The notes beneath the pieces were generated by a model that was given only the letters and a program-made list of their open reading frames with translations, searched no databases and was not told the origin of the DNA. Source: Dehalococcoidia bacterium (GTDB lineage Bacteria > Chloroflexota > Dehalococcoidia > Lucifugimonadales > Australimonadaceae). From it: a stretch of 64,000 bases of DNA. The position numbers and the translations under genes are program-made. Positions 17,829 through 36,212 of the stretch are shown here, one piece after another. The first letter of the stretch is position 1; each line of letters opens with the position of its first letter. Location: NCBI GenBank assembly GCA_965206315.1, contig OZ242210.1:2343560-2407559 (forward strand). The letters run 5' to 3'.

Positions 17829-17870
17829 CGCTCGTCTGCCTTGTTGGGTGGAGAGCGAAAAGCACCTGCT

Positions 17871-19494: not shown

Positions 19495-20016
19495 ATGGCC
19501 ATCAATCCTTATACGCTTCCCCCGGACCTGCAGGGCTGGCGCGGCGAGTCGATACCCGGAGCGCACAAGCGCAAGTGGTTCACGCTGGTCGAGAACGACA
19601 AGTGCCTCGTGACGGCGCTGCTGCTCATCCCCGGCGAGGTCGGGATCCGGCACTCGCACGAATCGGGCGAGCTGTCGGTCCACTTCTCGGACGAGATGCG
19701 GCCCGAGGTGACGTGGAACCCGCCCGGCATGGTGCACGGCGGCGTCCCCGCGCCCGCGAACCCGGTGGAAGCCGCGGTGGAGGGGCTGATCGACGAGGAG
19801 TCGATACGAGCGTCCGGCAACCCGGAGTTCGCGCGGTTCATCGCGGGAGTGCTGGAGGCGCACGTGAAGCGCGTCGACGAGATCGTCGCGGAGCGGACAC
19901 GCCCCGCGCCGGCGCCGCGCGTCATCGTGGACGTGCTCTTTCCGCCGTTCAAGACGACCATCGTCGACCCCGGCGTCGCGGACGGCAAGACGGTTACCGG
20001 TCAGTGGTACGACTAG
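19495..20016 (+). CDS. cupin-domain protein
   Basis: 3' part of ORF 18058..20016, starting at MAINPYTL after an AGGAAGGAG RBS. The cupin-like strand region is LLLIPGEVGIRHSHESGELSVHF. Confidence 0.6.
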   Translation: MAINPYTLPPDLQGWRGESIPGAHKRKWFTLVENDKCLVTALLLIPGEVGIRHSHESGELSVHFSDEMRPEVTWNPPGMVHGGVPAPANPVEAAVEGLIDEESIRASGNPEFARFIAGVLEAHVKRVDEIVAERTRPAPAPRVIVDVLFPPFKTTIVDPGVADGKTVTGQWYD

Positions 20017-20092: not shown

Positions 20093-20126
20093 ATCGTTGG
20101 CAGACGGATAGCAAAGGAGGAGTGTG

Positions 20127-21233
20127 ATGGCACGAACGTACAACGGCCCGATCTACGACGGCGACGGCCACGTGCTGGAGAACAAGGAGGCGATCATCGA
20201 CCGGATGCCGACGGACTTCCGGGCCAGCCGTGCGGTGGAGCGGATGCGCCGCCGGAACATCTTCCCGGAGCTGGACAACTATCACAACCTGCTCAGCATC
20301 TCGCCCCCGGGCTCGTTCTCCAACCCGGAGGAGGTACGCGGGTGGACGCGCTTCATGGACGAGCTGTCCATCGGCGGAGCCGTGATCTACCCGACCGACG
20401 GACTCGCGGTGGGGCGGATGGTTGACCTCGACCAGATAGAGATGGTGACCAGGGCCTACAACGACTGGGTGCACCAGGAGTACCTGCAGAAGGACAACCG
20501 CCTGCAGGCGGTGGCGCTGCTGCCGATGCAGGAGCCGGAACTCGCTGCGGCGGAGCTGCGGCGCGCGGTCGAGGAGCTGGGGATGTGCGGCGGGATGCTG
20601 CCCGCGACCGGGCTGCAGGGCCACCTCGGCTCGAAGCACTTCTGGCCCGTCCACGAAGAGGCGGACCGCCTCGGGTGCTGCCTATCGGTGCATGGCGGCT
20701 CGTACCCGGACCTGGGCTTCCACGACCTCAACATCTTCGCGGCGATACACGCGATGGGGCACCCGTTCGGCATCATGATCTCGTTCATGAGCATGCTGTT
20801 CAACGGCATCTTCGACAGGTTCCCGAACGTGCGTTACGGCTTCATGGAGGGCGGCGTCGCGTGGTTCCTGATGGCGCTGGAGCGCGGCGACGGCTCCTAC
20901 AACTCGTTCACCCCGCTCGACCCGAACAGGCGCTTCCTGCAGCTGAGCGACGACGAGAGCGTGCGGGAGAACATCCTGCGCCACGTCCGGGAAGGGCGCA
21001 TATTCGTGGGCGTCGAGGGCGACGAGCCCGACCTCGCGCACGCGGTGCGGACGGTCGGCAGCGATCCGTTCATCTGGTCGAGCGACTTCCCGCACGAGGT
21101 GACGGTGGAGACGTGCGCGCTGGAGATCCGGGAACTCGTCGAGAACGAGGACGTGCCTGACGCCGACCTCGAGGCGATCCTCTGGAAGAACGCCGCGCGG
21201 ATGTACGGGCTGCGCACACCCGCCGCTGCGTAA
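20127..21233 (+). CDS. amidohydrolase-2 (PF04909, ACMSD-like) family metal hydrolase/decarboxylase
   Basis: IYDGDGHVLE near the N-terminus, SVHGG, AIHAMGHP and SSDFPHE near the C-terminus. The ATG follows an AAAGGAGG RBS. Confidence 0.75.
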   Translation: MARTYNGPIYDGDGHVLENKEAIIDRMPTDFRASRAVERMRRRNIFPELDNYHNLLSISPPGSFSNPEEVRGWTRFMDELSIGGAVIYPTDGLAVGRMVDLDQIEMVTRAYNDWVHQEYLQKDNRLQAVALLPMQEPELAAAELRRAVEELGMCGGMLPATGLQGHLGSKHFWPVHEEADRLGCCLSVHGGSYPDLGFHDLNIFAAIHAMGHPFGIMISFMSMLFNGIFDRFPNVRYGFMEGGVAWFLMALERGDGSYNSFTPLDPNRRFLQLSDDESVRENILRHVREGRIFVGVEGDEPDLAHAVRTVGSDPFIWSSDFPHEVTVETCALEIRELVENEDVPDADLEAILWKNAARMYGLRTPAAA

Positions 21234-21786: not shown

Positions 21787-22689
21787 CTAGAGCTGACGGA
21801 GCTTGGGGTCGAGGTAGTCGCGGAGCCAGTCGCCGAGAAGGTTCATGGAGAGCACCGTGAACATGATGGCGAGGCCCGGGATGACCGAGAGCCACCACGA
21901 CGTGACGATGAAGTCGCGACCCTCCGCGACCATGACGCCCCACGCGGGGTTCGGCGGCGGGATGCCCGCGCCGAGGAAGCTGAGCGACGCCTCCAGCAGG
22001 ATGACGTTCCCCACCTGGAGCGTCGCGAGGACGATGATGGTGTTGAAGACGTTGGGGAGGATGTGGCGGAAGATGATGCGCAGGTTGGAGGCCCCCGCGA
22101 CGCGGGCGCGTGCGACGAAGTCCATCTCCTTGAGCGTCAGCACCTCCGCGCGCACCTGTCGCGCGTAGCGCGACCAGAGCAGGAGCGCGACGACGGCGAC
22201 AGTCGTGGCCGTGCCTGGCTCGAACAGCACGACGAGCACGAGCGCGAGCAGGATGAGTGGCATCGACAGGTTGATGTCGACAAGCCGCATGATGACGTGG
22301 TCCCACCAACTGCCGAAGTAGCCGGCGACGAGGCCCAGCACCGAACCGATGGTGCCGCCTACGGCGAGTGCGGCGAGGGAGACGAGCGCCGCCGTCCGCG
22401 CGCCGAAGATCATGCGGCTGAGGATGTCGCGCCCCTGGCGGTCGGTGCCGAGTGGATGGCTCCACTCGCCGCCGTCCGTCCACGCGGGGGGCAGCAGCCG
22501 GATGCGCAGGTCGCCGTCTATCGGGTCGTAGGGGGCAACGAACTCGGCGAAGAGCGCGGGTATGACCAGCACGATGAGGAGCACCGCGGCAGGTATGACC
22601 GGGTAACGGCGCACGAACGCCCAGACCCTTCCGAGCACTCGGACTCCGGGGATGCGCGGGACAGCGGGAGGGGAGGCTACGACGGCCAT
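21787..22689 (-). CDS. peptide-type ABC transporter permease (DppC/OppC-like)
   Basis: ORF 21787..22878, trimmed to MAVVASPP (M64). Carries HPLGTDRQGRDILSRMIFGAR and the EAA-loop region FVARARVAGASNLRIIFRHILPN. Confidence 0.85.
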   Translation of the reverse strand: MAVVASPPAVPRIPGVRVLGRVWAFVRRYPVIPAAVLLIVLVIPALFAEFVAPYDPIDGDLRIRLLPPAWTDGGEWSHPLGTDRQGRDILSRMIFGARTAALVSLAALAVGGTIGSVLGLVAGYFGSWWDHVIMRLVDINLSMPLILLALVLVVLFEPGTATTVAVVALLLWSRYARQVRAEVLTLKEMDFVARARVAGASNLRIIFRHILPNVFNTIIVLATLQVGNVILLEASLSFLGAGIPPPNPAWGVMVAEGRDFIVTSWWLSVIPGLAIMFTVLSMNLLGDWLRDYLDPKLRQL

Positions 22690-22690
22690 G

Positions 22691-23623
22691 TCAGCCTCTC
22701 GCTCCGCCGTAGCGGACGCGCGGGTCGATGTAGGCGTAGAGGATGTCCACGACGAGGTTGATGGTGATGAACATGGCGGAGATGAGGATGACGAGCCCCT
22801 GGACGACGGCGTAGTCGCGCGCGAGCACGGCGGTGAGGGCGAGCTGGCCGATGCCGGGCCACGCGAAGACGGTCTCAAGGGTGACGACGCCGGTGACCAT
22901 GATGCCGGCGATGATGCCGAACAGGGTGAGCGGGGGGATGGCGGCGTTCTTGAGGGCGTGCTTCCAGATGACCTTCCACTCCGGCGTGCCCTTGATGCGC
23001 GCGAACTTCACGTACTCGCTGTCCAGCACGTTCAGCATCGCGGAGCGGGTGAGGCGCATGAACGCGGCCACGGAGAACCAGCCGAGCGCTACCCCGGGCA
23101 GGATGAGGTGCGTGATGCCGCCGCGCCCGGAGACAGGGAGCCAGCCCAGGTTTACTGAAAAGATCCAGATGAGCACGATGCCCAGCCAGAAGGGTGGGAG
23201 CGATTGTCCGAGGAGGGCGATGACCTTGCCGACCATGTCGATCGGGGTGCCCTTCATCACGGCCGAGATAACGCCGATGGGGACGGCCATGAGCGCGCTG
23301 AAGAGCAGCGCGAAACCGGCGAGCTGCAGGCTCGCGGGGATGGCGTCCCCGATGAGGGCCATGGCGCTCTGCCCCTGGAACTTGAGCGACGGGCCGAAGT
23401 CCAGTTGGAGCATGTTGCCGAGGAAGAGGACGTACTGGTGCCAGAGCGGCTTGTCGAACCCCCAGAGGCGGTTGAGGCGTTCGATGTCCTCGGGCATGGC
23501 GTCAACGGGCGCGAGCACGTCTATGGGGCTGCCGGTGACGCGCACGAGCGAGAAGACGATGATGCTCACGCCTATCAGCGCGAGCACCGCCTGGAAGAGC
23601 CGGATGATGATGTAGCGTTGCAT
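22691..23623 (-). CDS. peptide-type ABC transporter permease (DppB/OppB-like)
   Basis: MQRYIIIRLFQAVLALIGVSIIVF and YVKFARIKGTPEWKVIWKHALKNA. Confidence 0.85.
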   Translation of the reverse strand: MQRYIIIRLFQAVLALIGVSIIVFSLVRVTGSPIDVLAPVDAMPEDIERLNRLWGFDKPLWHQYVLFLGNMLQLDFGPSLKFQGQSAMALIGDAIPASLQLAGFALLFSALMAVPIGVISAVMKGTPIDMVGKVIALLGQSLPPFWLGIVLIWIFSVNLGWLPVSGRGGITHLILPGVALGWFSVAAFMRLTRSAMLNVLDSEYVKFARIKGTPEWKVIWKHALKNAAIPPLTLFGIIAGIMVTGVVTLETVFAWPGIGQLALTAVLARDYAVVQGLVILISAMFITINLVVDILYAYIDPRVRYGGARG

Positions 23624-23635
23624 CGGGCGGCTATG

Positions 23636-24577
23636 TTATCGCGCATCGTCCGTTCGGACGAGGGCCATGGCGCGGACGCCGGCCTTGTAGTGCTCCTCCG
23701 GCGTGACGATGGGGCCGGGGTGGTAGGTGTAGTCGGCGCCGGGGTCGAGGAACTCCTCGTACAGCAGCTCCCTGTGCTCGGGGTAGGTGACGGTCATGGC
23801 GTAGCAGGCGAAGCCCGGCACGTAGAACCGCGCGACGCCTCGCGCGTCGGCCTTCGAGCGACCAAGGCCCGCGACGGCCACTTCCGCGCCTGCTACGGAA
23901 ACGCCGTCGCGGTCGAACACCTGCACGCTGACGTTGGGGCGCGGCAGCAGGCCCAGGGAGAGCCTGCGGCGGAGCCTCTCTCTGCGGCTGAGCAGCGCGT
24001 CTTCCGCGACCTCTCCGACGACGTCGGACTCGAACCCGGGCCCCTTGGGCGTCCGCCAGTCGGGGCCGTACTTCCGGCGCAGGTACTCCTCGGGTGGGTT
24101 GGGGGTGCGGAAGTGCTCGCCGATGAACTCGATCTCGCCGAGGGTCTCGAACAGGTGCAGCGGCAGCTCGACGCCCGGGAACTCGTAAGCCCTGCCGTCG
24201 ACGATGCGGTGGCACGTCCAGTCCGTGCGGATGCCGTCCTTGATGAGGGCCACGCTGACGTGGCGGACGTTGGGCTTTATGCGCGGGTAGAAGCCGTATG
24301 ACCGGAACGCTTCCCCGACACGGTAGATCGTGTCCATGTCGAGGCCGTGCATCCCGATGACGCCCGCCGTGTCCATCTCGTCGTCCCAGGGGATGAAACG
24401 CCCTTCGCGCACAGCGCCCAAGAGGGTGCCCGAGCCGATCCAGAAGATGATGCCCTGCTCGTCGAAGATGCGCTTGACTTCCTTGAGCCGCGCTGCGGCG
24501 ACATCGGGATCGAGCGGCGTTGGGTCCTTGATGGTCTTCTCGTAGGCTGCCTCGCCTGCGGCGTCTCTTTCGGTCAT
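23636..24577 (-). CDS. LicD-family nucleotidyl/phosphotransferase-like protein with C-terminal Ig-like (carboxypeptidase-regulatory-like) domain
   Basis: WIGSGTLLGAVREGRFIPWDDEMD matches the LicD core (GTLLGA.R...FIPWDDD.D). The C-terminal VSVQVFDRDGVSVAGAEVAVAGLG...ARGVARFYV looks like an Ig-like beta-sandwich. Confidence 0.6.
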   Translation of the reverse strand: MTERDAAGEAAYEKTIKDPTPLDPDVAAARLKEVKRIFDEQGIIFWIGSGTLLGAVREGRFIPWDDEMDTAGVIGMHGLDMDTIYRVGEAFRSYGFYPRIKPNVRHVSVALIKDGIRTDWTCHRIVDGRAYEFPGVELPLHLFETLGEIEFIGEHFRTPNPPEEYLRRKYGPDWRTPKGPGFESDVVGEVAEDALLSRRERLRRRLSLGLLPRPNVSVQVFDRDGVSVAGAEVAVAGLGRSKADARGVARFYVPGFACYAMTVTYPEHRELLYEEFLDPGADYTYHPGPIVTPEEHYKAGVRAMALVRTDDAR

Positions 24578-24601
24578 GGCGCGCCTCCGCTATCACGCAC
24601 G

Positions 24602-24628
24602 CTGGATTCCCGCCTTCGCGGGAATGAC
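24602..24628 (-). repeat. repeat module C core (inverted orientation)
   Basis: 'ctggattcccgccttcgcgggaatgac'. Confidence 0.7.
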
Positions 24629-24688
24629 GAAGAGAGTCAGGAACGACAAGGGGCGGGCTCCGTCTGGAGCCCGCCCCTGAAGCGGTCG

Positions 24689-26638
24689 TTACTTGGAGAC
24701 GAGGCCCTCCAGGTGGTCGACGGGGGCGCCGGAGACCATGCCGGAGAAGACCCAGTCCGCGATCACGTCCGGGTCAGCGACGACCTCGTTGGGGAGCCAG
24801 AACAGTGGGATGTCCTGGTGGAGGTTGTAGTAGAGGTCGCCCACTTCACGCAGGATGTCGTCCCGGTCCTGCGGGGTGTTCGTCGCGTACGCCTCGCGGA
24901 TGAGCGCTTCGGCTTCGGGGCTCTGCAACCCGATGTAGAGGACGGGGATGACGGAGCTGCCGTAGACCTGCACGGTGATGAGCTGAGCGCCGCTGGTGGA
25001 GACGGGCCAGATGTGGTTGTCCCAGTGCATCTCGCGCTGCTTGTTGCGGTACTCGATGAAGTCGACCCGTTGCTCGGTAACGTCGACGCCGATGTCGCGC
25101 CAGAAGTCAGCGATCGCCTGCATCACGTCCACGCCTGACGGCACGGCGGTCAGGGGAGTCAGCTGGATGGTTGTCTGGAGCGGGTTGCTCTCGTCGTAGC
25201 CGGCCTCAGCGAGGAGCGCCCTGGCGGCGTCGGGGTCGTAGCCGTACTCGTCCTCGAAGCGGCTCTCCCATTCCGTGTTCCATCCCACGCGCTGCGGGTT
25301 GCCCGGCAGGTAGTGGTTCTTGAACATCTTGAGGCCCCTGCCGTCGAAGAAGGAGTCGTTGATGAGGTCGCGGTCGATGGCCTTGTTGAGCGCCTTCCGT
25401 ACCCGGACGTCGTTGAGCGGCGACTTGGGGTATGCGGAGCAGCTCAGGAACGGGAGGTCCTCGGCGGCCGCGTCCGGGTCGACGGCGCATTCTTTGAGAG
25501 CGGGGACGCCGCTGGCGGAGACGCGGTCGACTGCGAGGTTCGGCCCTGCCGGGACGTAGACGCCCTGCCACGCGAGGAAGTAGCGGGCGGCGGGCACCTG
25601 GGCAGTGAACCGGACGTAGCCCCGGCCCTCAGCCTCGACGGTCAGCTCTTCCGGCAGTTTGGCCAGGTGTACCTCGCCGTTGAGCAGCTTCGCGAGACGC
25701 GTCGATGCCTCCGGGATGAACTCGAACTCGAACTCGGGGAACTCCGGCGTGACCCGCCAGTGGTTGTCCACGGCCTCGTAGACGACGCCGACCTGTTCAT
25801 CGATGGAGACGATCTGGTAGGGGGCGGTGCCTGCGAGCGGGGGCTCGTTCGCCGCCGGGTCGCTTGCGCCCGAGAGTTCGCGGAGCCTGCTCTCGTCGTG
25901 CGGCGTCTCGGGGTCGTCCTCTGTGTTGGCCCAGTCGCCGGTGGGAACGCCTGCGAGGATGCCGGACGTGCGCGAGAAGCCGTCCGCCTTGCTGGCGATC
26001 TCCATGCCGCCCTGGATCTCTGAGACGACCTCCAGCACGTCGGCGTAGGGCGCCGTTGTGTGGAAGACGACCTCGTGGTCGTTCACGACCTCCACGTCGG
26101 TGACGCGGGCGCGCAGGGTGTTCGCCTCGCTGCCGACGTCGTCCGGCAGGATGTTCATGAGCCAGGAGAAGCGGACGTCCTCGGCGGTGAACTCGCCGTG
26201 GCCGCCGGAGAACTGCACGCCCTCGCGCAGCTTGAACCGCCAGGAGTGGCCGTCCGGCTCGAGGCTCCACTCGGTGGCGAGTTGCGGCACGTAGGCGCCG
26301 CTGGTCTTCTCGAAGCCGACGAGGTACTCGTAGTGCGGGCGGAGGTACCAGTTGCTGGCCTGACCGGGGATGCGGCGGATGTTGCTGTAGTCGGTCGGCG
26401 GCGCGACGGCCATGATGACACGGTCGACCGCGGGTCCCATGGCTTCGGGGACGGGCGTGGCCGTCGGGTCGGGCGCGGGCGCAGGAGCGTCAGGCGTCGT
26501 ACCGGCCGGGGCCGGTGGGCTGGTCGGCGTGGGCGTGGCGGTTGGGTCTTCGCCGTCGCACGCCGCGGCGAACAACGCGAAGAGGGCCATCACCCCCACA
26601 ACCACAAGTAAACGGGCCTGATTCCTGATGCTACTCAC
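24689..26638 (-). CDS. ABC transporter substrate-binding lipoprotein, family 5 (peptide/nickel type)
   Basis: GTG start. Signal peptide plus lipobox (LFAAAC), then a Pro/Thr-rich tether, then a long SBP_bac_5-like body. Confidence 0.8.
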   Translation of the reverse strand: MSSIRNQARLLVVVGVMALFALFAAACDGEDPTATPTPTSPPAPAGTTPDAPAPAPDPTATPVPEAMGPAVDRVIMAVAPPTDYSNIRRIPGQASNWYLRPHYEYLVGFEKTSGAYVPQLATEWSLEPDGHSWRFKLREGVQFSGGHGEFTAEDVRFSWLMNILPDDVGSEANTLRARVTDVEVVNDHEVVFHTTAPYADVLEVVSEIQGGMEIASKADGFSRTSGILAGVPTGDWANTEDDPETPHDESRLRELSGASDPAANEPPLAGTAPYQIVSIDEQVGVVYEAVDNHWRVTPEFPEFEFEFIPEASTRLAKLLNGEVHLAKLPEELTVEAEGRGYVRFTAQVPAARYFLAWQGVYVPAGPNLAVDRVSASGVPALKECAVDPDAAAEDLPFLSCSAYPKSPLNDVRVRKALNKAIDRDLINDSFFDGRGLKMFKNHYLPGNPQRVGWNTEWESRFEDEYGYDPDAARALLAEAGYDESNPLQTTIQLTPLTAVPSGVDVMQAIADFWRDIGVDVTEQRVDFIEYRNKQREMHWDNHIWPVSTSGAQLITVQVYGSSVIPVLYIGLQSPEAEALIREAYATNTPQDRDDILREVGDLYYNLHQDIPLFWLPNEVVADPDVIADWVFSGMVSGAPVDHLEGLVSK

Positions 26639-26794
26639 GACTCCCCCCTTGCCGCGTATGAGCGTATGCTGTTGCGAAACCGTGCGCCCCCGTTAAGATT
26701 GAGGGACACGGCTGCAAGAGCAGGGGCGCATTATACGCACGGACGCGCAGGCGCGCCATGCGCGTGCGCCAATGAAGGGTAAAGGAGGCGCCGC

Positions 26795-28069
26795 ATGTTG
26801 AGCCACGCTGACAACGAGCTCATCACCCGCACGGGCAGGGGCACGCTGATGGGCGCGCTCTTCCGCCGCTACTGGCTGCCCGCGCTGATCTCCGACGAAC
26901 TCGAGGCGGACGGGGCACCGGTGCGCTTCCGGCTGCTGAACGAGGACCTCGTCGCGTTCCGGGACACGAGCGGCGAGGTGGGCATCCTTTCCGAGTTCTG
27001 CCCGCACCGCGGCGTCTCGCTTGCGCTCGGTCGCAACGAGTACGACGGCCTGCGCTGCCTCTACCACGGCTGGAAGTTCGACGTCGCCGGTCGATGCGTG
27101 GACATGCCGACGGAGCCGGTGGAGAGCGGTTTCCGCAACAAAGTGAGGGCAGGGGCGTACGCGGTGCGCGAGCACGCCGGTGCGGTGTGGGTGTACATGG
27201 GCGCGCCTGAGAGCGAGCCGCCGTTCCCCGTCTACTACTGGACGACGGTGCCGGACTCGAACCGCATCATGGCGAAGTGGATACAGGACGCGAACTGGCT
27301 GCAGAGCCTGGAGGGCGGCATCGACACGGTGCACGCCTCGTTCCTGCACAACACTGCCGAGGGACCGATGGTTGCGCCCGGCGCGGCGAGCGGGAACAAC
27401 CTGATGTTCAACGACACGAGGCCGAAGCTGGAGATAGAAGAGACCTCCTACGGCTTCCGCTACGCCGCGATACGAAGAGGACCGGAGGAGGACAAGCGCT
27501 ACGTGCGGATCACGCCCCACATCATGCCGGCGTCGTCGTATCCGCCGTTCTCCAGGGAGGACAACCGCATCTGGAACATGTGGGTCCCCCGCGACGACGG
27601 CACGTGCTGGGCGTGGGATGTGTGCTTCAACGAGACGAAACCGATGTCCGACGAGTTGAAGGCGCAGCTGAAGGAGTACCGGGGCTACAACGCCTTCGAT
27701 CCCAGGACATTCGTGAAGTACGCGGGGCCGCAAAACATGTGGATGCAGGACCGCGAGCTGATGAAGAAGGAGAGCTGGTCCGGCATCCGCGGGCTGTTCG
27801 TGCAGGACAACGCGGTGCAGGAGAGCATGGGCCCCATCGTCGACCGCACCATCGAGCACCTGGGCACCACGGACGCGGCCATCATCAGGGCGCGCAAGCT
27901 GTACATCAAGGCCGCCATCGCGCTCGCGGAGGAGGGCGTCGAGCCGCCCGGCGTGTGGGAGCAGGGCGACTACGAGCTGATCCGCTCCGACGCGTACGTG
28001 CAGCCGGTGGACGTTTCGTGGAAGGCCGAGCGTCCGCTGGAAGAGCGGTTCGCCGTCGGCGTGAGTTGA
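26795..28069 (+). CDS. Rieske non-heme-iron oxygenase alpha subunit (paralogue 2)
   Basis: CPHRGVSLALGRNEYDGLRCLYHGW and EGGIDTVHASFLH. AAGGAGG RBS. Confidence 0.85.
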   Translation: MLSHADNELITRTGRGTLMGALFRRYWLPALISDELEADGAPVRFRLLNEDLVAFRDTSGEVGILSEFCPHRGVSLALGRNEYDGLRCLYHGWKFDVAGRCVDMPTEPVESGFRNKVRAGAYAVREHAGAVWVYMGAPESEPPFPVYYWTTVPDSNRIMAKWIQDANWLQSLEGGIDTVHASFLHNTAEGPMVAPGAASGNNLMFNDTRPKLEIEETSYGFRYAAIRRGPEEDKRYVRITPHIMPASSYPPFSREDNRIWNMWVPRDDGTCWAWDVCFNETKPMSDELKAQLKEYRGYNAFDPRTFVKYAGPQNMWMQDRELMKKESWSGIRGLFVQDNAVQESMGPIVDRTIEHLGTTDAAIIRARKLYIKAAIALAEEGVEPPGVWEQGDYELIRSDAYVQPVDVSWKAERPLEERFAVGVS

Positions 28070-28096
28070 TCTGTCTCCGGGCGCGAGGAGCAACGA

Positions 28097-29113
28097 TTGA
28101 CCGAGACGGCAGCCAACGTCGTCCTTGACGTGCAGGAACTGCAGACGCACCTCTTCACCAAGTGGGGGGTGACGCGCGCCGTCGACGGGGTGAGCTTCCA
28201 GATACGCGAGGGCGAGACGCTCGGGCTCGTGGGCGAGTCCGGCTCCGGTAAGAGCATGACCGCGCTGTCGCTGCTGCGCCTGCTGCCGGAGGCCGCGCGC
28301 ATCGTGGGCGGGCGCATCCTGCTCGACGGCGACGACATCGTGCGCATGCGGATGCCGGACGTGCGCCAGATGCGCGGACGCAAGATATCGATGATCCTGC
28401 AGGACCCGCAGACGGCGCTGAACCCGGTATTCACTATCGGGAACCAGCTCACGGAGTCGATCGCGGCGCGCGGCGGACGGAACGGCGGACGCAGGAGCAG
28501 GCAGTCCGTCAGGGACCGGGCGATGGAGGTGCTGCGCATGATGCGCGTGGCCGCGCCGGAGCGCCGCCTCTCGGACTTTCCGCACCAGATGAGCGGCGGC
28601 ATGAAGCAGCGCGTGGTCGGCGGTATCGCCATCGAGAGCCAGCCACGGCTGCTCATCGCGGACGAGCCGACGACGGCGCTGGACGTGACGATACAGGCGC
28701 AGTACCTCAACCTGCTGAAGGAGATACAGCGCGAGACGGGCGTCGCCATCCTGTTCATCACGCACGACCTGGGCGTCGTGGCGCGGATGTGCGACAGGGT
28801 CGCGGTGATGTACGCGGGGCGCATCGTGGAGCAGGGCGGCATCCACGAGATATTCGACAATCCGTCGCACCCGTACACGCAGGCGTTGCTCGGCTCCATC
28901 CCGAAGATGGAGGAGCGCGTCGACCGGCTCACCGTGATAGAGGGGCAGCCGCCCGCGCTCTTCGCGCTGCCGCAGGGATGCCGCTTCGCGGTGCGCTGTC
29001 CCCACGTCCACGACCGGTGCGAGGAGGCGTATCCGGCGGAGTTCACAGGTTCTGACGGACATACCACCGCCTGCTGGCTGTTGGAGGAGAAGTGGAAGCC
29101 GACGTCCTCGTAA
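28097..29113 (+). CDS. peptide-type ABC transporter ATP-binding protein (DppD/OppD-like)
   Basis: Walker A GESGSGKS, signature MSGGMKQR, Walker B LLIADEPT, and the C-terminal oligopeptide-type motif HPYTQALL...CRFAVRCP. Confidence 0.9.
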   Translation: MTETAANVVLDVQELQTHLFTKWGVTRAVDGVSFQIREGETLGLVGESGSGKSMTALSLLRLLPEAARIVGGRILLDGDDIVRMRMPDVRQMRGRKISMILQDPQTALNPVFTIGNQLTESIAARGGRNGGRRSRQSVRDRAMEVLRMMRVAAPERRLSDFPHQMSGGMKQRVVGGIAIESQPRLLIADEPTTALDVTIQAQYLNLLKEIQRETGVAILFITHDLGVVARMCDRVAVMYAGRIVEQGGIHEIFDNPSHPYTQALLGSIPKMEERVDRLTVIEGQPPALFALPQGCRFAVRCPHVHDRCEEAYPAEFTGSDGHTTACWLLEEKWKPTSS

Positions 29114-30063
29114 GGGCCGAGAACCTCGAGAAGCATTTCCCCGTGACCGAGGGGCTGGTGCTGATGAAGACGGTGGGCTGGGTGCGCGCCGTCGACGGGA
29201 TCAGCTTCGAGGTGCGACGCGGTCAGACGCTCGCGCTCGTGGGCGAGTCGGGGTGCGGCAAGACGACAACGGCCAAGCTCGTGCTGCGCCTCGAACGCCC
29301 GACGGGCGGCGCCATCTCGATGGAAGGGCAGGACATCCATGCGCTCGGCGGGCAGGACCTGCGGCAGTTCCGCATGCAGGTGCAGGCGGTCTTCCAGGAC
29401 CCGTGGAGCTCGCTCAGCCCGCGGATGCGGGTGCGCGACATCATCGCGGAGCCGCTCGTGGTCAATAGGCACGTGGGCGCGCGTGAGGCGCGCGAGCGCG
29501 TGCTGGAGCTGCTGAACGACGTGGGGCTGCGTCCCGAGCAGGCAGACCTCTTCCCCCACGAGTTCAGCGGGGGGCAGCGGCAGCGCATCGCGATGGCGAG
29601 CGCGCTCAGCGTTGAGCCGTCGCTGATCGTGCTCGACGAGCCGGTGTCGGCGCTCGACGTGTCGGTTCAGGCGCAGATTATGAACCTGCTGCGCGACCTG
29701 CAGGTGCAGCACAACGTGAGCTACCTGATGGTGTCGCACAACCTTGCGACGGTCCGCTACCTCGCGCACGAAGTGGCGGTCATGTATCTCGGCGAGATCG
29801 TCGAGCGTGCGGAGACGGACGACCTGTACGAGCATCCGCTGCACCCGTACACGCAGGCGCTCTTCTCGGCGGCCCTCCCGGCGCACCCGGCTCTCCAGCG
29901 CGACGAGATGATCCTGCAGGGCGAGGTGCCGAGCCCGCTCAACCCGCCGTCCGGCTGCCGCTTCCACCCGCGCTGTCCGTTCGCGAAGGACGTCTGCGCG
30001 GAGGTCGCGCCGGAGTGGAAAGAGGAGACGCCCGGGCACTTCGTCGCGTGTCATCTGTACTGA
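29092..30063 (+). CDS. peptide-type ABC transporter ATP-binding protein (DppF/OppF-like)
   Basis: GESGCGKTT, FSGGQRQR, LIVLDEPVS and HPYTQALF...CRFHPRCP. The GTG start follows a GGAGGAG RBS and overlaps the upstream gene by 22 nt. Confidence 0.9.
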   Translation: MEADVLVRAENLEKHFPVTEGLVLMKTVGWVRAVDGISFEVRRGQTLALVGESGCGKTTTAKLVLRLERPTGGAISMEGQDIHALGGQDLRQFRMQVQAVFQDPWSSLSPRMRVRDIIAEPLVVNRHVGAREARERVLELLNDVGLRPEQADLFPHEFSGGQRQRIAMASALSVEPSLIVLDEPVSALDVSVQAQIMNLLRDLQVQHNVSYLMVSHNLATVRYLAHEVAVMYLGEIVERAETDDLYEHPLHPYTQALFSAALPAHPALQRDEMILQGEVPSPLNPPSGCRFHPRCPFAKDVCAEVAPEWKEETPGHFVACHLY

Positions 30064-30065
30064 CA

Positions 30066-30106
30066 TCAACATGGATGGACAGGATGGACAGGATGGACAG
30101 AATAGG
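30066..30106 (-). repeat. repeat module G (inverted; three tandem GGATGGACA units)
   Basis: 'tcaacatggatggacaggatggacaggatggacagaatagg'. Confidence 0.75.
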
Positions 30107-30144
30107 GGAAGGTGAGGCAAGGTTCCGGTCATGGGAGGTGCGCC

Positions 30145-31455
30145 ATGCTGACGAGGGAAGAGAACGAACTGCTCTGCCGCACGGGACCGAACGATCCCGC
30201 GGGTGAGCTGCTCCGGCGCTACTGGCAGCCCATCGCACTGGCCGAGGAGTTGCCGCCGGGCAGCGCGCCGATGCCGGTACGCGTCCTGAGCGAGGACCTG
30301 ACGCTCTTCCGCGACCAGTACGACCGCCTCGGGCTCGTGGCGCGGCACTGCGCCCACCGTGCGGCGGACCTGAGCTACGCGCGCATCGAGGACGGCGGTC
30401 TGCGCTGCCTGTACCACGGCTGGCTGTACGACATCCACGGCAACTGTCTGGAGCAGCCGGGCGAGCCCGAGGGCAGCACGTTCAAGGACAAGATTCAACT
30501 GCTCTCGTACCCGGTACAGGAGCGCGGGGGCGTCGTGTTCGCGTACCTGGGGCCGGGCGAGCCGCCGCTGCTGCCGGCGTACGAGTTCCTTGACATCGCG
30601 CCGGAGAACCGCGTCGTCACGAAGATCTACCACGAGTGCAACTACCAGCAAGGGAACGAGGGGAACATCGACCCGCAGCACCTCTCGTTCCTGCACTTCT
30701 TCATCCGCGAGGACGCCAGCGGCAGCCGCGTCGCGACGGGCAACGTGCAGGGCGGGGCCGCGACGTCGAACCGCATGATGGGCGATGATCCGTCGCCGAC
30801 GATCGAGGTCGAGGAGACGGACTACGGCATCCGCATCTACGCGGTGCGGGACACGGACGCGGGCGACGACTACGTGCGCATCACGAACTTCATCTACCCG
30901 AACCTGGCGTCGTTCCCGGCGTTCCCGGGCGTGTTCGGGGTCAACTGGCACGTGCCGATAGACGACACGCACCACTGGAAGTTCATGTTCATGGTGCGGT
31001 CGGAGGGGCCGCTGCCGAAGGACGCGCTGGGCCTGACGATGTTCGAAGGACTGAAAGAGGACTACACGAACGAGCGGAGCCTGCGCAACCGCTACCTGCA
31101 GGACCGTGAGGAGATGCGGACGCGCAGCTTCCTCGGCATGGGGCCGAGTTTCGCGGTCCATGACATGTGGGCGACGGAGGGTGAGGGCGCGATACAGGAC
31201 CGGACGACGGAGCACCTCGGCTACACGGACAAGGCGGTTGCCCTCTCGCGGCGTCTGCTGCTCAAGGCGACGCGACAGGTGCAGGACGGCGCGGAGGCCC
31301 CGCACGTGGTCCGCGAGGCGTCGGCCAACGTCTTCAACCACCTTGGCGCGTGGCAGGAGGTCATCCCGAAGTCGGAGGAGTGGTCGTCCGTGTGGAAGCG
31401 GAATGCCGAGGCGCTGGCGGCGCGGATGGGCTCGAACGGGCACAACGGTGCGTAG
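30145..31455 (+). CDS. Rieske non-heme-iron oxygenase alpha subunit (paralogue 3)
   Basis: Start at MLTREENELLCRTGP (M12 of the ORF). CAHRAADLSYARIEDGGLRCLYHGW and EGNIDPQHLSFLH. Confidence 0.85.
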   Translation: MLTREENELLCRTGPNDPAGELLRRYWQPIALAEELPPGSAPMPVRVLSEDLTLFRDQYDRLGLVARHCAHRAADLSYARIEDGGLRCLYHGWLYDIHGNCLEQPGEPEGSTFKDKIQLLSYPVQERGGVVFAYLGPGEPPLLPAYEFLDIAPENRVVTKIYHECNYQQGNEGNIDPQHLSFLHFFIREDASGSRVATGNVQGGAATSNRMMGDDPSPTIEVEETDYGIRIYAVRDTDAGDDYVRITNFIYPNLASFPAFPGVFGVNWHVPIDDTHHWKFMFMVRSEGPLPKDALGLTMFEGLKEDYTNERSLRNRYLQDREEMRTRSFLGMGPSFAVHDMWATEGEGAIQDRTTEHLGYTDKAVALSRRLLLKATRQVQDGAEAPHVVREASANVFNHLGAWQEVIPKSEEWSSVWKRNAEALAARMGSNGHNGA

Positions 31456-31504
31456 GATTTTGGGTGAGGTTGGGTAGAGGGGACAGCACGGAGGAGCTGT
31501 TGTC

Positions 31505-32743
31505 ATGCTGACGCCCGAGCAGAACGACCTGCTGCACAAGGTGGGGCCCGGCACGCCTATGGGGCGTCTGATGCGCCGCTACTGGCATCCGGTCGCCGCC
31601 GTCGGAGAGTTGGACGACAACCCGGTCAAGGCGATACGCCTGATGGGCGAGGACCTCGTGCTGTTCAAGGACGTGTCGGGCGACTACGGGCTGCTGGAGC
31701 GTCACTGTCCTCACCGCAGGGCCGACCTGTCGTACGGCTGGGTGGAGGAGGACGGCGGTCTGCGATGCAGCTACCACGGATGGCTGTTCGATACGACGGG
31801 CCAGTGCATCGGGCAGCCGTTCGAGCAGATCGCGCATCCGGAGGCGAACTTCAAGGAAAAGGTGCGGGCGACGGCGTACCACGTGCAGCCGAAGGCGGGG
31901 CTACTGTGGGCGTACATCGGCGAAGGTCCCGTGCCGGAACTGTGGGACTGGGATCGCTACCACGACCGTGGGTACAAGCAGGTCGTCTTCTCGGAGATCC
32001 CGTGCAACTGGCTGCAGTGCCAGGAGAACTCGATAGACCCGGTGCACTTCGAGTGGCTCCACTCGAACCAGTCGCTGCGCCGCGAAGGGAGCAAGGGGTA
32101 CGCGCCGACCCACACGCGCATCGCTTTCGAGGAGTTCGAGTTCGGCATCCGCTATCTGCGCATCCGGACGGACACGGACGAGGAGAACGAGCTGTGGAAG
32201 GTAGGGCGCGTCTGCCTGTGGCCGAACGCGCTCTACGCGGCAGGCCACTTCGAGTGGCGGGTGCCGGTAGACGACGAGCACACGATGAGCGTCGGGTGGT
32301 TCCTCGATCCGATACCCGGTGAGCAGCCGTTCGAGCAGGAGCGCATCCCGTACTGGCACTCGCCCATCGTGGACGAGGAGACGGGTCGCTGGATATCGAG
32401 CCACATCATGAACCAGGACTTCATCGCGTGGGTGGGGCAGGGCAACGTGTCCGACCGGTGGAACGAGCACCTGGGTGAGAGCGATCGCGGCGTGATCATG
32501 CTGCGGAAGCAGTTCATGGACGATCTGGCCGTCATCGAGGACGGTGGCGATCCGAAGGGAGTGCTGCGCGACGCGTCGCGCAACGACAAGATGCCGCTGC
32601 CGCGCATCCGCAACGAGGTCGGGCAGTTCGCGCCGACAACGTACCCGCCGGTGTTTCCGTTCCAGGTGGACCAGCCGAAGGAGATCGAGGCGGAGTACCA
32701 CGCGTACTGGGCGGAGTATGGGGGCGCGCTGGCGCCGTCGTAG
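31505..32743 (+). CDS. Rieske non-heme-iron oxygenase alpha subunit (paralogue 4)
   Basis: CPHRRADLSYGWVEEDGGLRCSYHGW and ENSIDPVHFEWLH. Confidence 0.85.
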   Translation: MLTPEQNDLLHKVGPGTPMGRLMRRYWHPVAAVGELDDNPVKAIRLMGEDLVLFKDVSGDYGLLERHCPHRRADLSYGWVEEDGGLRCSYHGWLFDTTGQCIGQPFEQIAHPEANFKEKVRATAYHVQPKAGLLWAYIGEGPVPELWDWDRYHDRGYKQVVFSEIPCNWLQCQENSIDPVHFEWLHSNQSLRREGSKGYAPTHTRIAFEEFEFGIRYLRIRTDTDEENELWKVGRVCLWPNALYAAGHFEWRVPVDDEHTMSVGWFLDPIPGEQPFEQERIPYWHSPIVDEETGRWISSHIMNQDFIAWVGQGNVSDRWNEHLGESDRGVIMLRKQFMDDLAVIEDGGDPKGVLRDASRNDKMPLPRIRNEVGQFAPTTYPPVFPFQVDQPKEIEAEYHAYWAEYGGALAPS

Positions 32744-32782
32744 GGCGTCCGCTGCCGATGTCACGATGAGGAGCCGCTTTCG

Positions 32783-34018
32783 ATGCTGACGCCTGACCAG
32801 AACGATCTGCTCGCCAGGGTGGGGCCCGGTACGCCTATGGGGCGGCTGATGCGCCGCTACTGGCATCCGGTGGCCGCCGTCGGGGAGTTGGACGACAACC
32901 CGGTCAAGCCGATCCGCCTGATGGGCGAGGACCTCGTGCTGTTCAAGGACGTGTCCGGGGAGTACGGACTGCTGGAGCGTCACTGCCCGCATCGCCGCGC
33001 CGACCTCTCGTACGGGTGGGTGGAGGAGGACGGCGGTCTGCGGTGCAGCTATCACGGGTGGCTGTTCGATACGTCGGGACGCTGCATCGGGCAGCCGTTC
33101 GAGCAGATCGCGCACCCCGAGGCGAACTTCAAGGACAAAGTGCGGGCCACGGCGTACCACGTGCAGCCCAAGGCCGGACTGCTGTGGGCGTACATCGGCG
33201 AAGAACCGGTGCCGCAGCTGTGGGACTGGGACCGTTACCACGACCGGGGCTTCAAACAGGTGGTCTTTTCGGAGGTCCCGTGCAACTGGCTGCAGTGCCA
33301 GGAGAACTCGATAGACCCGGTGCACTTCGAGTGGCTGCACTCGAACCAGTCGCTCCGCCTCCAAGGCGACCCCGACTACTCGCCGACGCACACGCGGGTC
33401 GGGTTCGAGGAGTTCGAGTTCGGCATCCGCTATCTGCGTATCCGCTCGGACACGGACGAGGAGAATGACCTGTGGAAGGTGGGCCGTGTCTGTCTCTGGC
33501 CGAACGCGCTCTACACGGGCCACTTCGAATGGCGGGTGCCGGTAGACGACGAGCACACGCTGAGCGTCGGGTGGTTCATCGACCCGATCCCCGGGGAGCA
33601 GCCGTTCGAGCAGGAGCGCATCCCGTACTGGCACTCGCCCATCGTGGACAAGGAGACCGGCCGCTGGATATCCAGCCACATCATGAACCAGGACTTCATT
33701 GCGTGGGTGGGGCAGGGCAACGTGTCCGACCGGTGGAACGAGCACCTGGGTGAGAGCGACCGTGGGGTCATCATGCTGCGCAAGCGGTTCATGGACGACC
33801 TGGCCGTGATTGAGGACGGGGGCGATCCGAAGGGGGTGTTGCGGGACGCGTCGCGCAACGACAAGTTGCCGCTGCCGCGCGCCAATGTCCGGACCGGGCT
33901 GTACGAGCAGACGAAGTATCCGCCGGTCTTTCCGTTCCTGGTGGACCAGCCGGAGGCGGTCAATGCGGAGTACCACGCGGCGTGGGTGGAATACGGCGGC
34001 GAGTTGCCTTCGAAATGA
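32783..34018 (+). CDS. Rieske non-heme-iron oxygenase alpha subunit (paralogue 5; tandem duplicate of paralogue 4)
   Basis: Same motifs as paralogue 4. Collinear along the full length, with most residues identical by eye. Confidence 0.85.
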   Translation: MLTPDQNDLLARVGPGTPMGRLMRRYWHPVAAVGELDDNPVKPIRLMGEDLVLFKDVSGEYGLLERHCPHRRADLSYGWVEEDGGLRCSYHGWLFDTSGRCIGQPFEQIAHPEANFKDKVRATAYHVQPKAGLLWAYIGEEPVPQLWDWDRYHDRGFKQVVFSEVPCNWLQCQENSIDPVHFEWLHSNQSLRLQGDPDYSPTHTRVGFEEFEFGIRYLRIRSDTDEENDLWKVGRVCLWPNALYTGHFEWRVPVDDEHTLSVGWFIDPIPGEQPFEQERIPYWHSPIVDKETGRWISSHIMNQDFIAWVGQGNVSDRWNEHLGESDRGVIMLRKRFMDDLAVIEDGGDPKGVLRDASRNDKLPLPRANVRTGLYEQTKYPPVFPFLVDQPEAVNAEYHAAWVEYGGELPSK

Positions 34019-34116
34019 CGACAGACCGCGCAAACTGTGGAGCCATCGGCTGTACGGTTTGACAAGCATGGAATTACCGTTAGACTGTGCGTCACAGTTA
34101 CTGTGGAGATGTATCG

Positions 34117-34443
34117 ATGAAGAACATCACTGTGGCTGTAGACGACGAAACATACCGCTCCGCGCGCGTCCGAGCGGCGGAATTGGACACGACCGTGTCG
34201 GCGCTGGTCCGCGAGTATCTGCGATTACTTTCGGTAAGACATGAAGAGGAATCGCACGCGGAAACAGTGGTTGAACGGCGCCACAGGCTGCTGCGGGAAG
34301 TGGTCGCAGACTTCGATGCGCGCGGGATAGCGCTGCGCGTTGCCGACAGCCTTTCCCGCGAGGAGTTGCTGGACCGTGCAGCCGCCCGGATCGACGCCGA
34401 AGCGAAACGCCGCAGCGTGAAGAATCGCAGGCTGCGTTCTTAA
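34117..34443 (+). CDS. ribbon-helix-helix (CopG/VapB-like) antitoxin homologue, solitary
   Basis: MKNITVAVDDETYRSARVRAAELDTTVSALVREYL is an RHH motif. It is a clear paralogue of 51937..52233 (shared DFDARG motif), but no toxin gene follows. Confidence 0.6.
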   Translation: MKNITVAVDDETYRSARVRAAELDTTVSALVREYLRLLSVRHEEESHAETVVERRHRLLREVVADFDARGIALRVADSLSREELLDRAAARIDAEAKRRSVKNRRLRS

Positions 34444-34922: not shown

Positions 34923-36212
34923 ATGGCTTCATCCGGCTCGGCCCAAAGTCCGCAGACCCCGAGAAACAACCTGGCGTACCTGCTGCTCACGCTGCACCTG
35001 CCCTCTATCTCCATGGGCCTGGGGCTCGGCCTCACCGTGCCCGTCATACCGCAGCTGGCCAAGGAGATGGGCGTCGACCTGGAAGGCGCGGCGCTCGTCT
35101 TCGTCTTTCAACTGCTCGGGACGTTCGCCGCGCCGCTGCCCACGGGGTTCCTCATCGACAGGCTCGGACGTCGGCGCGTGCTGCTCGCGGGACCCATCAT
35201 CACTGCGGTGGCCTCACTGCTCGTCGCCAAGGTGGCGCTGGAAGGCGCGGACGGTTCGTACGTCGAACTGCTGATCTACCGGTTCATCGCAGGGTGGGGC
35301 GAGCAGATGTGGATGATGAGCCGCATCACCGTCATCGCCGACACCGGCGCGACGAACCAGCGCGGCAAGCAGGTAACGCAGATGTTCGGGGTGCAGCAGA
35401 TCGGCAACCTCTCCGGCCCCGTCGTCGGCGGGTTCGCTGCGGTGCTGCTGGGGCTGTGGGCGCCGTTCGTCATGCACGCGGTCATCGTCCTCGTTGCGCT
35501 CATCCCCAGCTTCTATCTGCTGCGGGAGACCGCGCCGCCGGCCGGCCCGCGGCAGGCGGCCGCTTCCGGCGCTCCGGCGCGGGGGGTCTGGCGTCACATG
35601 ATGGCCGCACCGATCCCCGCCGTGTTTGTGGTGCAGTTCCTCGCGAACGTCACCCGCGGCGGCGTATTCGGCGGTGGCGTCATCGTGGTCTATGCCGCGT
35701 ACGCCTACGGGCTGGAGCCGGACGAACTCGGCGTGCTGCGGGGCGCGATGGCCGCCGTCGCCATCCCCATCGTCTTCACCGGCGGCTACGTGATGGACCG
35801 GTTCGGGCGGAAGTACACCATCGTTCCCGGCCTCATCCTCTCCGGGGCCTCGATGGTGTTCCTCGCCGCGATCGCCTATACGGAAGCCTCTTACGCATGG
35901 TTCGTTGCGGGCTTCATCGCCATACACATGTCCGCGAACATCATCTCCGGCAACATGCAGACGCTCGGGACGGACGTCGCGCCCGCGCAGGCGCGCGGCA
36001 AGTTTTTCGGCGTGTCCCGCACCGTGGCCCAGGGCGGGATGGTGCTCAGCCCGGCGAGTTTCGGCTGGCTCACGGCCATCTCTACGGCCACGGTGGGGTT
36101 CGGGTTCCTGGCCGCGACAGCCCTGGTTGGCGCCGTTATCGTGATATCGCTGATACCGGAAACGCTGCGGCGGGAAGAGCCCGCCCAGGCGGCGCCGTCA
36201 ACTACAACCTGA
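34923..36212 (+). CDS. MFS transporter
   Basis: About 12 predicted hydrophobic spans and the MFS loop motif GFLIDRLGRRRVLL. Confidence 0.8.
   Translation: MASSGSAQSPQTPRNNLAYLLLTLHLPSISMGLGLGLTVPVIPQLAKEMGVDLEGAALVFVFQLLGTFAAPLPTGFLIDRLGRRRVLLAGPIITAVASLLVAKVALEGADGSYVELLIYRFIAGWGEQMWMMSRITVIADTGATNQRGKQVTQMFGVQQIGNLSGPVVGGFAAVLLGLWAPFVMHAVIVLVALIPSFYLLRETAPPAGPRQAAASGAPARGVWRHMMAAPIPAVFVVQFLANVTRGGVFGGGVIVVYAAYAYGLEPDELGVLRGAMAAVAIPIVFTGGYVMDRFGRKYTIVPGLILSGASMVFLAAIAYTEASYAWFVAGFIAIHMSANIISGNMQTLGTDVAPAQARGKFFGVSRTVAQGGMVLSPASFGWLTAISTATVGFGFLAATALVGAVIVISLIPETLRREEPAQAAPSTTT

Follow-up and report, generated by a model that had tools for sequence, protein, structure and literature searches.

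A Dpp-type importer split around Rieske oxygenase genes in a Dehalococcoidia genome: a candidate genus-conserved island for the import and oxidation of anionic organic compounds

We have analyzed a locus of a Dehalococcoidia bacterium (contig OZ242210.1) in which the genes of a Dpp/Opp-type ATP-binding cassette (ABC) importer lie among the genes of five Rieske oxygenases. All coordinates are positions in the window, that is, the whole stretch of 64,000 nucleotides that was analyzed, and the gene map (Table 1) was drawn from the open reading frame (ORF) listing and from Pfam and NCBIfam scans. The scans confirmed the positions of all ten genes, from permease C to Rieske 5, that an earlier reading of the DNA (the original prediction) had listed. 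They also bore out its description of an importer split over two divergent units, with Rieske genes on both sides of the ATPase genes. The five importer components, namely the substrate-binding protein (SBP; SBP_bac_5), two BPD_transp_1 permeases and two oligo_HPY ATPases, all score above the Pfam cut-offs. The ORF of permease C runs to position 22878; its likely start is the ATG at 22689, which gives a protein of 300 amino acids and matches the gene calls of relatives. On the plus strand the gaps from Rieske 2 through ATPases D and F to Rieske 3, 4 and 5 measure 27, -22, 81, 49 and 39 nt, and the stretch 26795-34018 has no predicted terminator-like site.

Table 1. Genes and features of the locus in the order of their positions in the window
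Feature	Position	Strand	Family and remarks
Rieske 1	18049-19359	-	Pfam Rieske + LigXa_C; alpha-only, phthalate/isophthalate dioxygenase family; upstream part of the locus
173-aa cupin-motif protein	19495-20016	+	Chloroflexota-only family without a Pfam model
Amidohydro_2 (ACMSD/LigW-type) enzyme	20124-21233	+	Pfam PF04909, 5.5e-30
ABC permease C (DppC/NikC-like)	21787-22689	-	BPD_transp_1 + OppC_N
ABC permease B (DppB/NikB-like)	22691-23623	-	BPD_transp_1 + BPD_transp_1_N; 1-nt gap to permease C
LicD-like nucleotidyltransferase-fold gene	23636-24577	-	Separates the SBP gene from permease B, from which it is 12 nt away
Family-5 (cluster C) substrate-binding lipoprotein (SBP)	24689-26638	-	SBP_bac_5; Chloroflexota-specific subfamily
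Divergent spacer	26639-26794		156 nt, between the SBP gene and Rieske 2
Rieske 2	26795-28069	+	Rieske + LigXa_C; PDO/IPDO family; opens the plus-strand unit
ABC ATPase D (DppD/OppD-like)	28097-29113	+	ABC_tran + oligo_HPY
ABC ATPase F (DppF/OppF-like)	29092-30063	+	ABC_tran + oligo_HPY
Rieske 3	30145-31455	+	Rieske + LigXa_C; PDO family
Rieske 4	31505-32743	+	Rieske + LigXa_C; PDO family; tandem duplicate of Rieske 5
Rieske 5	32783-34018	+	Rieske + LigXa_C; PDO family
MFS transporter	34923-36212	+	Pfam/NCBIfam; syntenic downstream, membership uncertain
Double DUF427 protein	36226-37008	+	Pfam/NCBIfam; syntenic downstream, membership uncertain
Class II aldolase-superfamily protein	37023-37763	+	Pfam/NCBIfam; membership uncertain; weak match to 3,4-dihydroxyphthalate decarboxylase PhtC (2.5e-12)

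The layout of the locus was compared with that of related genomes, in which labels of the form G0xx denote sampled genomes and Lxxx fetched loci (for example L042 from G008, L040 from G004 and L056 from G016). Each of the 21 species sampled in the genus, as well as one further genus, has an SBP orthologue of 72-78% identity at a single locus, and the layout held in these same genomes; in G017 the match to the orthologue is split into two pieces. The orthologue is mostly missing elsewhere in the family and almost entirely so in the rest of the order; there, only paralogues of 30-44% identity were found, in G024 and G040. Twenty fetched regions share a recurring order: Rieske 1 (minus), cupin and Amidohydro_2 genes (plus), then permease C, permease B, the optional LicD-like gene and the SBP gene (minus), and, across the divergent spacer, an optional Rieske 2, ATPases D and F, an optional Rieske 3, Rieske 4/5, the MFS gene and the DUF427 gene (all plus). 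Rieske 1 is syntenic throughout the genus. In six relatives (L001, L037, L047, L049, L053, L054) the Rieske block is followed by the MFS gene and the DUF427 gene. This conservation of the layout supports the claim of the original prediction that importer and Rieske genes form a functional unit and not a chance neighbourhood.

The individual Rieske genes are less constant. Rieske 2 is absent in five of about 21 congeneric species, in which the SBP gene directly faces ATPase D. Rieske 3 occurs in most relatives, not all, and the copy number of Rieske 4/5 is one or two. An IS110 element lies between ATPase F and Rieske 3 in a 90%-identical relative, and a 74%-identical metagenomic relative has kept the divergent SBP-Rieske pair with an amidase in the place of the ATPases. 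Where the identity of Rieske 2 falls to 59%, the link to the transporter is gone. The obligate co-expression of uptake and oxidation that had been proposed for the locus is not borne out by these data: Rieske 2 is dispensed with in five species, the IS110 element separates ATPase F from Rieske 3 and one relative has no adjacent ATPases. Co-location is thus conserved, but the ATPases need not be co-transcribed with particular Rieske genes.

Other elements were observed at the same place in some relatives. By our reading of the raw sequence, a CRISPR-like array of about nine copies of the 36-nt repeat CCTGTATACCCTCGGCATTTGGGGAGTATGCATACC and apparent mobile-element genes lie beside the SBP gene of G008 (L042), where others have Rieske 2 and the ATPases. 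Read in the same way, an insert apparently encoding a DNA methyltransferase and an HNH protein separates the SBP gene from Rieske 2 in G004 (L040); ATPase genes were not detected near the SBP and Rieske 2 genes of this relative. REP-like GC-rich palindromic repeats fill the spacer between the SBP gene and the ATPase genes in species without Rieske 2 (L047, L052, L054, L056), and in G016 (L056) they appear to extend into the reading frame of ATPase D.

Five Dpp-type permease pairs and five ATPase pairs are encoded in the genome. Apart from the set of the window they are mostly contiguous or clustered, with the exception of one permease pair and one ATPase pair found at separate places. The homologous system of another genus of the family (G024, L051) is a classical contiguous operon of SBP, permeases B and C, and ATPases D and F. 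The same contiguous arrangement is found on a groundwater Chloroflexota contig (L057), whose permeases and ATPases are 61-70% identical to those of the window. ATPase D is 65-68% identical to ATPase D of these two contiguous operons, and ATPase F 70-71% identical to their ATPase F. These identities of 65-71% assign ATPases D and F to permeases B and C as their cognate motor. The divergent layout is a derived state, in which the ATPase pair has been inverted relative to the ancestral contiguous operon. The LicD-like protein matches LicD, Mf1 and FKRP over residues ~31-70 only, the similarity to FKRP spanning 37 residues; of a full-length LicD domain (227 positions), only profile positions 3-32 are matched. 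Its gene occurs in most species of the genus and is absent in G002, G004, G008, G033, L002 and L004; among the relatives without it are members of another genus or relatives whose Rieske 2 diverges most. Its absence in several relatives suggests that the LicD-like gene was inserted into the importer operon at a later time.

The five Rieske proteins are all closest to the phthalate dioxygenase PDO_KF1 (7FJL), the isophthalate dioxygenase IPDO_KF1 (9INA) and RO_CH34 (7FHR), with 28-41% identity to PDO and IPDO. Rieske 1 has RO_CH34 (7e-95), IPDO and PDO as its best PDB matches, Rieske 2 matches IPDO at 1e-87 with 41% identity, and Rieske 3 matches PDO_KF1 at 7e-70. In the alignment, all five proteins retain the CxH...CxxH ligands of the Rieske cluster, Asp178 as the bridging residue, His181 and His186 as iron ligands, and Arg231. 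In PDO sensu stricto, the pair Arg207 and Arg244 binds the two ortho carboxylates of the substrate (PMC8649396), while the pocket of IPDO has R234 on one face and H257 on the opposite one (PMC12445078). The position of PDO Arg244, equivalent to IPDO R234, binds the substrate carboxylate and is essential for activity (PMC8649396, PMC12445078). This position is occupied by Arg in Rieske 1 to 3 and by Lys in Rieske 4 and 5. Such a conserved basic residue at the carboxylate-binding position points to anionic substrates. At the position of Arg207, all five proteins show a gap, and phthalate was rejected as a substrate on this ground. The position of IPDO His257 holds His in Rieske 1 only, Asn in Rieske 2 and 3, and Glu in Rieske 4 and 5. 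Rieske 1 thus has both IPDO determinants; RO_CH34 also has the R234/H257 pair, yet it is inactive on isophthalate (PMC8649396). Rieske 4 and 5 are 88% identical, and all other pairs share 33-44% identity, which suggests four distinct specificities. The single substrate class of the original prediction is therefore not established for Rieske 1, 2, 3 and 4/5.

Rieske genes of this type are numerous in the genome. The genome, a single contig of 2.87 Mb, holds 56-57 paralogues by tblastn and, counted as domains, 53 of LigXa_C and 66 of Rieske type. The five Rieske genes of the locus, within 16 kb, constitute the joint densest cluster of the 56 copies, where about 0.3 would be expected by chance. 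An expansion of this kind was described in the SAR202 group by Saw et al. 2020, who counted up to 62 copies of ring-hydroxylating dioxygenase (RHD) genes in SAR202 group VII, mostly annotated as phthalate 4,5-dioxygenase; their set includes a sponge symbiont of 3.2 Mb (PMC6946804). A role in the oxidation of aromatic compounds or of dissolved organic matter (DOM) has been proposed for it (PMC6946804, PMC6306507). The present genome shows the SAR202-type pattern, with tens of COG4638/LigXa_C alpha-subunit paralogues in a Dehalococcoidia genome of ~3 Mb. Since the expansion has been published (PMC6946804), the multiplicity of Rieske genes is not new.

Two further genes accompany the importer and the oxygenases. 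The PDB neighbours of the Amidohydro_2 protein, whose paralogues number ~67 in the genome, are PtmU3 (an oxygenase), gamma-resorcylate decarboxylase, ACMSD, 5-carboxyvanillate decarboxylase (LigW) and salicylate decarboxylase. From this kinship the enzyme is probably a non-oxidative decarboxylase, and the relation to aromatic-acid decarboxylases fits the removal of a carboxyl group after ring hydroxylation. The 173-amino-acid protein gave no Pfam or NCBIfam match. It belongs to a family of ~185 homologues that is restricted to Chloroflexota and in which all members are unnamed. Within this family the cupin metal ligands H53, H55, E59 and H81 (3-His/1-Glu) are invariant, and a C-terminal block DVLFPPFKTT...GQWYD is highly conserved. 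The AlphaFold2 model of the protein has a pLDDT of 72, and a function was not assigned from the structure because its PDB cupin matches were weak (E 2e-3 or worse). Members of the family recur beside family-5 SBP and Rieske genes in L057 and L139.

The SBP carries a signal peptide that terminates in a lipobox, FAAAC, and next to it a linker rich in Pro and Thr. Among NCBIfam models it scores no higher than 68 bits, where DppA requires 1005, and it is far below every other equivalog cut-off as well. Clustering with characterized di- or oligopeptide binders, which the original prediction had named as an outcome that would count against it, was not seen: the best PDB sequence match reaches 78 bits, and identity to the structural neighbours is at most 20%. 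The AlphaFold2 model (pLDDT 74) was matched about equally well by GbpA, DppA, NikA and AapF in Foldseek, at 16-20% identity; structure was thus non-discriminating and was rejected as a guide to the ligand. At the positions of the peptide ligands Arg355 and Asp408 of DppA, the SBP has Leu and Ser/Thr/Gly in HMMER alignments of only ~18% identity. Its homologues consist of orthologues at 64-78% identity, then of a group found only in Chloroflexota at 45% or less, none of them informatively named.

The surroundings of this SBP subfamily were then surveyed. A scan of species-representative genomes gave 79 SBP loci, and 72 paralogous loci with 94 SBP copies were annotated by tblastn. Other Dehalococcoidia carry 22-35 copies of the subfamily per genome of 2.7-3.2 Mb, against 9-11 DppB-type permeases. 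Among the 94 copies, permease genes are rarely adjacent, and most copies are orphans. The density of Rieske genes around these copies is 0.20/kb within 1 kb of the SBP gene and drops at 4-10 kb to 0.02-0.03/kb, which equals the genome-wide LigXa_C density of 0.022-0.026/kb. A Rieske gene is found within 500 bp of 29 of the 94 copies, in 27 cases on the same strand. Grouping the SBPs at 70% identity leaves 54 lineages, of which 20 have a Rieske neighbour within 500 bp, against an expectation of ~6% (binomial p ~1.6e-11). Independent gene calls and Pfam agree with this pattern and give for L057 the succession Rieske, cupin, SBP, cupin, SBP, Rieske, hydrolase, Rieske and then the contiguous importer operon, and for L139 the groups SBP, Rieske, cupin; SBP, short-chain dehydrogenase/reductase (SDR), SBP; and Rieske.

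Ten orthologous sequences of the divergent spacer were aligned and revealed two invariant blocks. Block 1, TTGCGA-N16-TAAGAT at 26672-26699 (+), has conserved hexamers and a variable intervening stretch, as expected of a plus-strand promoter. Block 2, GGGGCGCATTATACGCA, contains ATTATA at 26730-26735, which reads TATAAT on the strand of the SBP gene (minus); species without Rieske 2 have TATACT as its equivalent. The two blocks are putative promoters for the plus strand and for the SBP strand. The inverted hexamer pair CGCACG-N21-CGTGCG, which had been put forward as a possible operator, is indeed present at 26736-26768, directly after the ATTATA block. The operator role is not supported. Pairs of the form CGCACG-N10-30-CGTGCG occur three times in the window against 1.5 expected, a number reached in 20 of 100 shuffles, and the fold is no more stable than that of shuffled sequences (z = -0.09). 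Moreover, the segment is deleted in five of the ten orthologous spacers and imperfect in a sixth, so that the pair is kept in about four of ten. No Rfam element was found in the spacer, and a riboswitch or other RNA element there was accordingly rejected. The only Rfam match was RNase P RNA (RF00010, 269 bits) at 17448-17831 (+), adjoining Rieske 1.

We favour, with moderate confidence, the view that the locus is a genus-conserved import-and-oxidise island for anionic, probably carboxylated, aromatic or alicyclic compounds. The substrates of the importer are probably the acidic organic substrates of the Rieske enzymes and not peptides. The SBP would capture these compounds outside the single membrane, and the translocator would import them. 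The Rieske enzymes, with four divergent specificities and one recent duplicate that all have a basic residue at the carboxylate-binding position, would then hydroxylate or dioxygenate the imported compounds, drawing electrons from carriers whose genes lie elsewhere in the genome. The Amidohydro_2 enzyme would take the carboxyl group off the hydroxylated product, on which the small cupin-type metalloprotein may act further. Both arms could be co-regulated by the two promoter-like blocks of the spacer. More tentatively, and with less than even confidence, we propose that Dehalococcoidia run a modular bind-and-oxidise system in which dozens of mostly orphan SBPs, many beside a Rieske gene and sometimes a cupin gene, share a few Dpp-type translocators. 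The locus of the window would be the form of this system that has one SBP and a dedicated translocator.

Several observations weigh against such an island. Rieske 2 and the LicD-like gene vary in presence among species, and synteny inside one genus counts as one evolutionary event only. Foldseek places the SBP near binders of glutathione, dipeptides or nickel chelates, which do not indicate aromatic acids, and the argument from the DppA residues depends on the alignments of ~18% identity mentioned above. In genomes so rich in Rieske genes, some adjacency of SBP and Rieske genes is inevitable. Co-diversification of the SBPs with their adjacent Rieske proteins was not significant in the dereplicated set (Mantel r = 0.18, p = 0.09); hence the adjacency recurs, but the data do not establish that the pairs are strictly inherited together. 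Proximity of Rieske and Amidohydro_2 genes is only about twofold over random (16 of 56 within 3 kb against 8.8 expected), and a genome-wide coupling of the two families was set aside for this modest enrichment. Finally, no reductase gene was found in the window, no ferredoxin gene in the locus, and no PDR-type reductase in the genome.

The absence of a reductase or ferredoxin gene from the locus implies that the electrons for the Rieske enzymes must come in trans. The sole NAD_binding_1 gene of the genome encodes an FNR-like protein of 249 amino acids at C1:2193520-2194269, ~150 kb before the start of the window. By their sequences, the Fer2 proteins of the genome resemble iron-sulfur subunits of molybdenum hydroxylases and of succinate dehydrogenase, and one further Fer2 match is a large NuoG/formate-dehydrogenase-like protein. 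Three small Rieske frames are located elsewhere in the genome (C1:101501, 50568 and 1248543); they may encode ferredoxins.

These points have to be set against three other explanations. The locus might be an ordinary peptide, nickel or opine importer in a Rieske-dense region, its layout kept by inherited synteny and its uptake function unrelated to oxidation. All five transporter components do score best against Dpp, Opp and Nik models, the structural neighbours of the SBP are GbpA, DppA and NikA, five species do without Rieske 2, and with 53-57 Rieske paralogues in the genome Rieske neighbours are frequent. However, the SBP stays below the cut-off of every NCBIfam model (68 bits, where DppA requires 1005), independent lineages of SBP paralogues adjoin Rieske genes six to eight times over expectation, and 22-35 copies per genome are unlike peptide or nickel binders. 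We regard this explanation as improbable. Delivery by the SBPs of a metal chelate, such as the iron or nickel complexes handled by NikA and CntA, to the iron enzymes, or a function of the SBPs as sensors, would agree with the orphan state of most paralogues, which have no adjacent permeases, and with the presence of NikA-type proteins among the best structural matches (TM 0.79-0.81 on target length). The dozens of diverged SBP copies in each genome speak for many ligands rather than one metal complex, the SBP of the window has a full dedicated translocator, and general Pfam and NCBIfam scans revealed no genes of metallophore biosynthesis in the locus; this explanation appears very improbable.

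It is also conceivable, if unlikely, that import and oxidation are indeed coupled but serve nitrogenous compounds derived from amino acids, for instance N-methylated or quaternary amines or host metabolites made from tyrosine. In that case the oxygenases would work as demethylases or monooxygenases and not as ring dioxygenases. Family-5 SBPs classically bind amino-acid-derived ligands, the demethylating Rieske enzymes NdmA and dicamba demethylase (DdmC) as well as SxtT are among the weaker PDB matches, and aromatic natural products of the sponge host have been proposed as substrates of Chloroflexi (PMC6306507). The LicD-like gene, which lies inside the importer operon in most species, would hint at a choline- or phospho-alcohol-type moiety; it is missing in several relatives (including G033, L002 and L004), though, and seemingly does not belong to the core. 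All five Rieske proteins are instead closest to the ring-dihydroxylating PDO and IPDO (28-41% identity) and have kept the basic residue that binds the carboxylate, and their conserved partner is an ACMSD-type decarboxylase.

The importer resembles the Dpp/Opp/Nik (PepT-family) systems such as DppABCDF of E. coli in its five components, in its OppC_N and BPD_transp_1_N permeases, in its oligo_HPY ATPases and in the fold of its SBP. It differs from DppABCDF by its two divergent units with interleaved oxygenase genes. Its SBP, at most 20% identical to any solved member of these systems, apparently lacks the ligands that bind the peptide termini in DppA, as far as weak alignments can tell, and belongs to a subfamily that has expanded to dozens of orphan copies paired with Rieske genes. 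The oxygenases share with PDO_KF1 and IPDO_KF1 of Comamonas testosteroni the alpha-only, class IA-like composition, the LigXa_C domain, the Rieske and iron ligands, Asp178 and Arg231, as well as a basic residue at the position of the carboxylate-binding Arg244/R234. Unlike PDO_KF1, none of them has Arg207, so that by the published determinants they are not phthalate dioxygenases; and since Rieske 1 alone has the equivalent of His257, at most one of them resembles IPDO. The two-component PDO is further distinguished by its reductase, as no gene for a PDR-type FMN/[2Fe-2S] protein was detected adjacent to the oxygenase genes or in the genome. The abundance of the oxygenases, 53-57 copies in 2.87 Mb, is of the same family and scale as the SAR202 RHD expansion. 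What goes beyond this expansion is the link to a family-5 importer and SBP subfamily; in the searched text of PMC6946804, neither ABC transporters nor binding proteins are brought up, and "ABC" occurs 0 times.

The functional precedent is the auxin-degradation operon iad of Variovorax, in which an ABC importer with the indole-3-acetic acid (IAA)-specific SBP IadK2 and the Rieske dioxygenase IadDE act on the same aromatic carboxylate (PMC10374108). The model proposed for the window likewise joins an importer and Rieske enzymes on the same compound. The two systems are nevertheless built from different parts: the SBP of the window is of family 5/cluster C and that of iad of cluster B-III (aromatic-acid type), the oxygenases of the window are alpha-only and PDO-type and that of iad is alpha3beta3, and the iad operon encodes a reductase, IadC, which has no counterpart gene in the locus. 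The Rieske expansion and catabolic clusters that join ABC uptake with Rieske oxygenases are already known. In the literature searched we found no paper linking family-5 SBPs of SAR202 or Dehalococcoidia to Rieske oxygenases, and neither a peptide-type (family-5) system for such uptake, nor the inverted-ATPase layout, nor SBP-Rieske adjacency with many orphan SBPs.

Research on the marine carbon cycle has yet to settle which compounds the expanded oxygenase families of SAR202-type Chloroflexota oxidise, and published work on this is speculative (PMC6946804). Compared with multi-component oxygenases, soluble SBPs are much less difficult to express and screen. Provided that every SBP binds the same ligand as the Rieske enzyme next to it, fishing for ligands with SBPs could reveal the substrates of the oxygenases. 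Annotations as "peptide/nickel transport system" in these genomes would then mislead metabolic reconstructions. If the modular system exists, the SBP repertoire would set which recalcitrant, carboxyl-rich DOM molecules are oxidised by these abundant bacteria of the ocean, of sponges and of groundwater, and family-5 SBPs would gain a new class of ligands.

Some minor features lie downstream of the Rieske block. A small conserved ORF of 108 amino acids at 34117-34443 (+), between Rieske 5 and the MFS gene, is 80% identical to L001:18390-18710 and has a promoter-like site at 34059-34086. No family was obtained when the longer frame around it (34087-34443) was scanned against Pfam. Read by eye, its N-terminus MKNITVAVDDETYRSARVRAAELDTTVSALVREYL resembles that of a ribbon-helix-helix protein, and the product could be a local regulator or an antitoxin. 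After the cluster, the minus strand carries at 37772-39640 genes for a HAD phosphatase and for a tartrate dehydrogenase (489 bits, cut-off 470).

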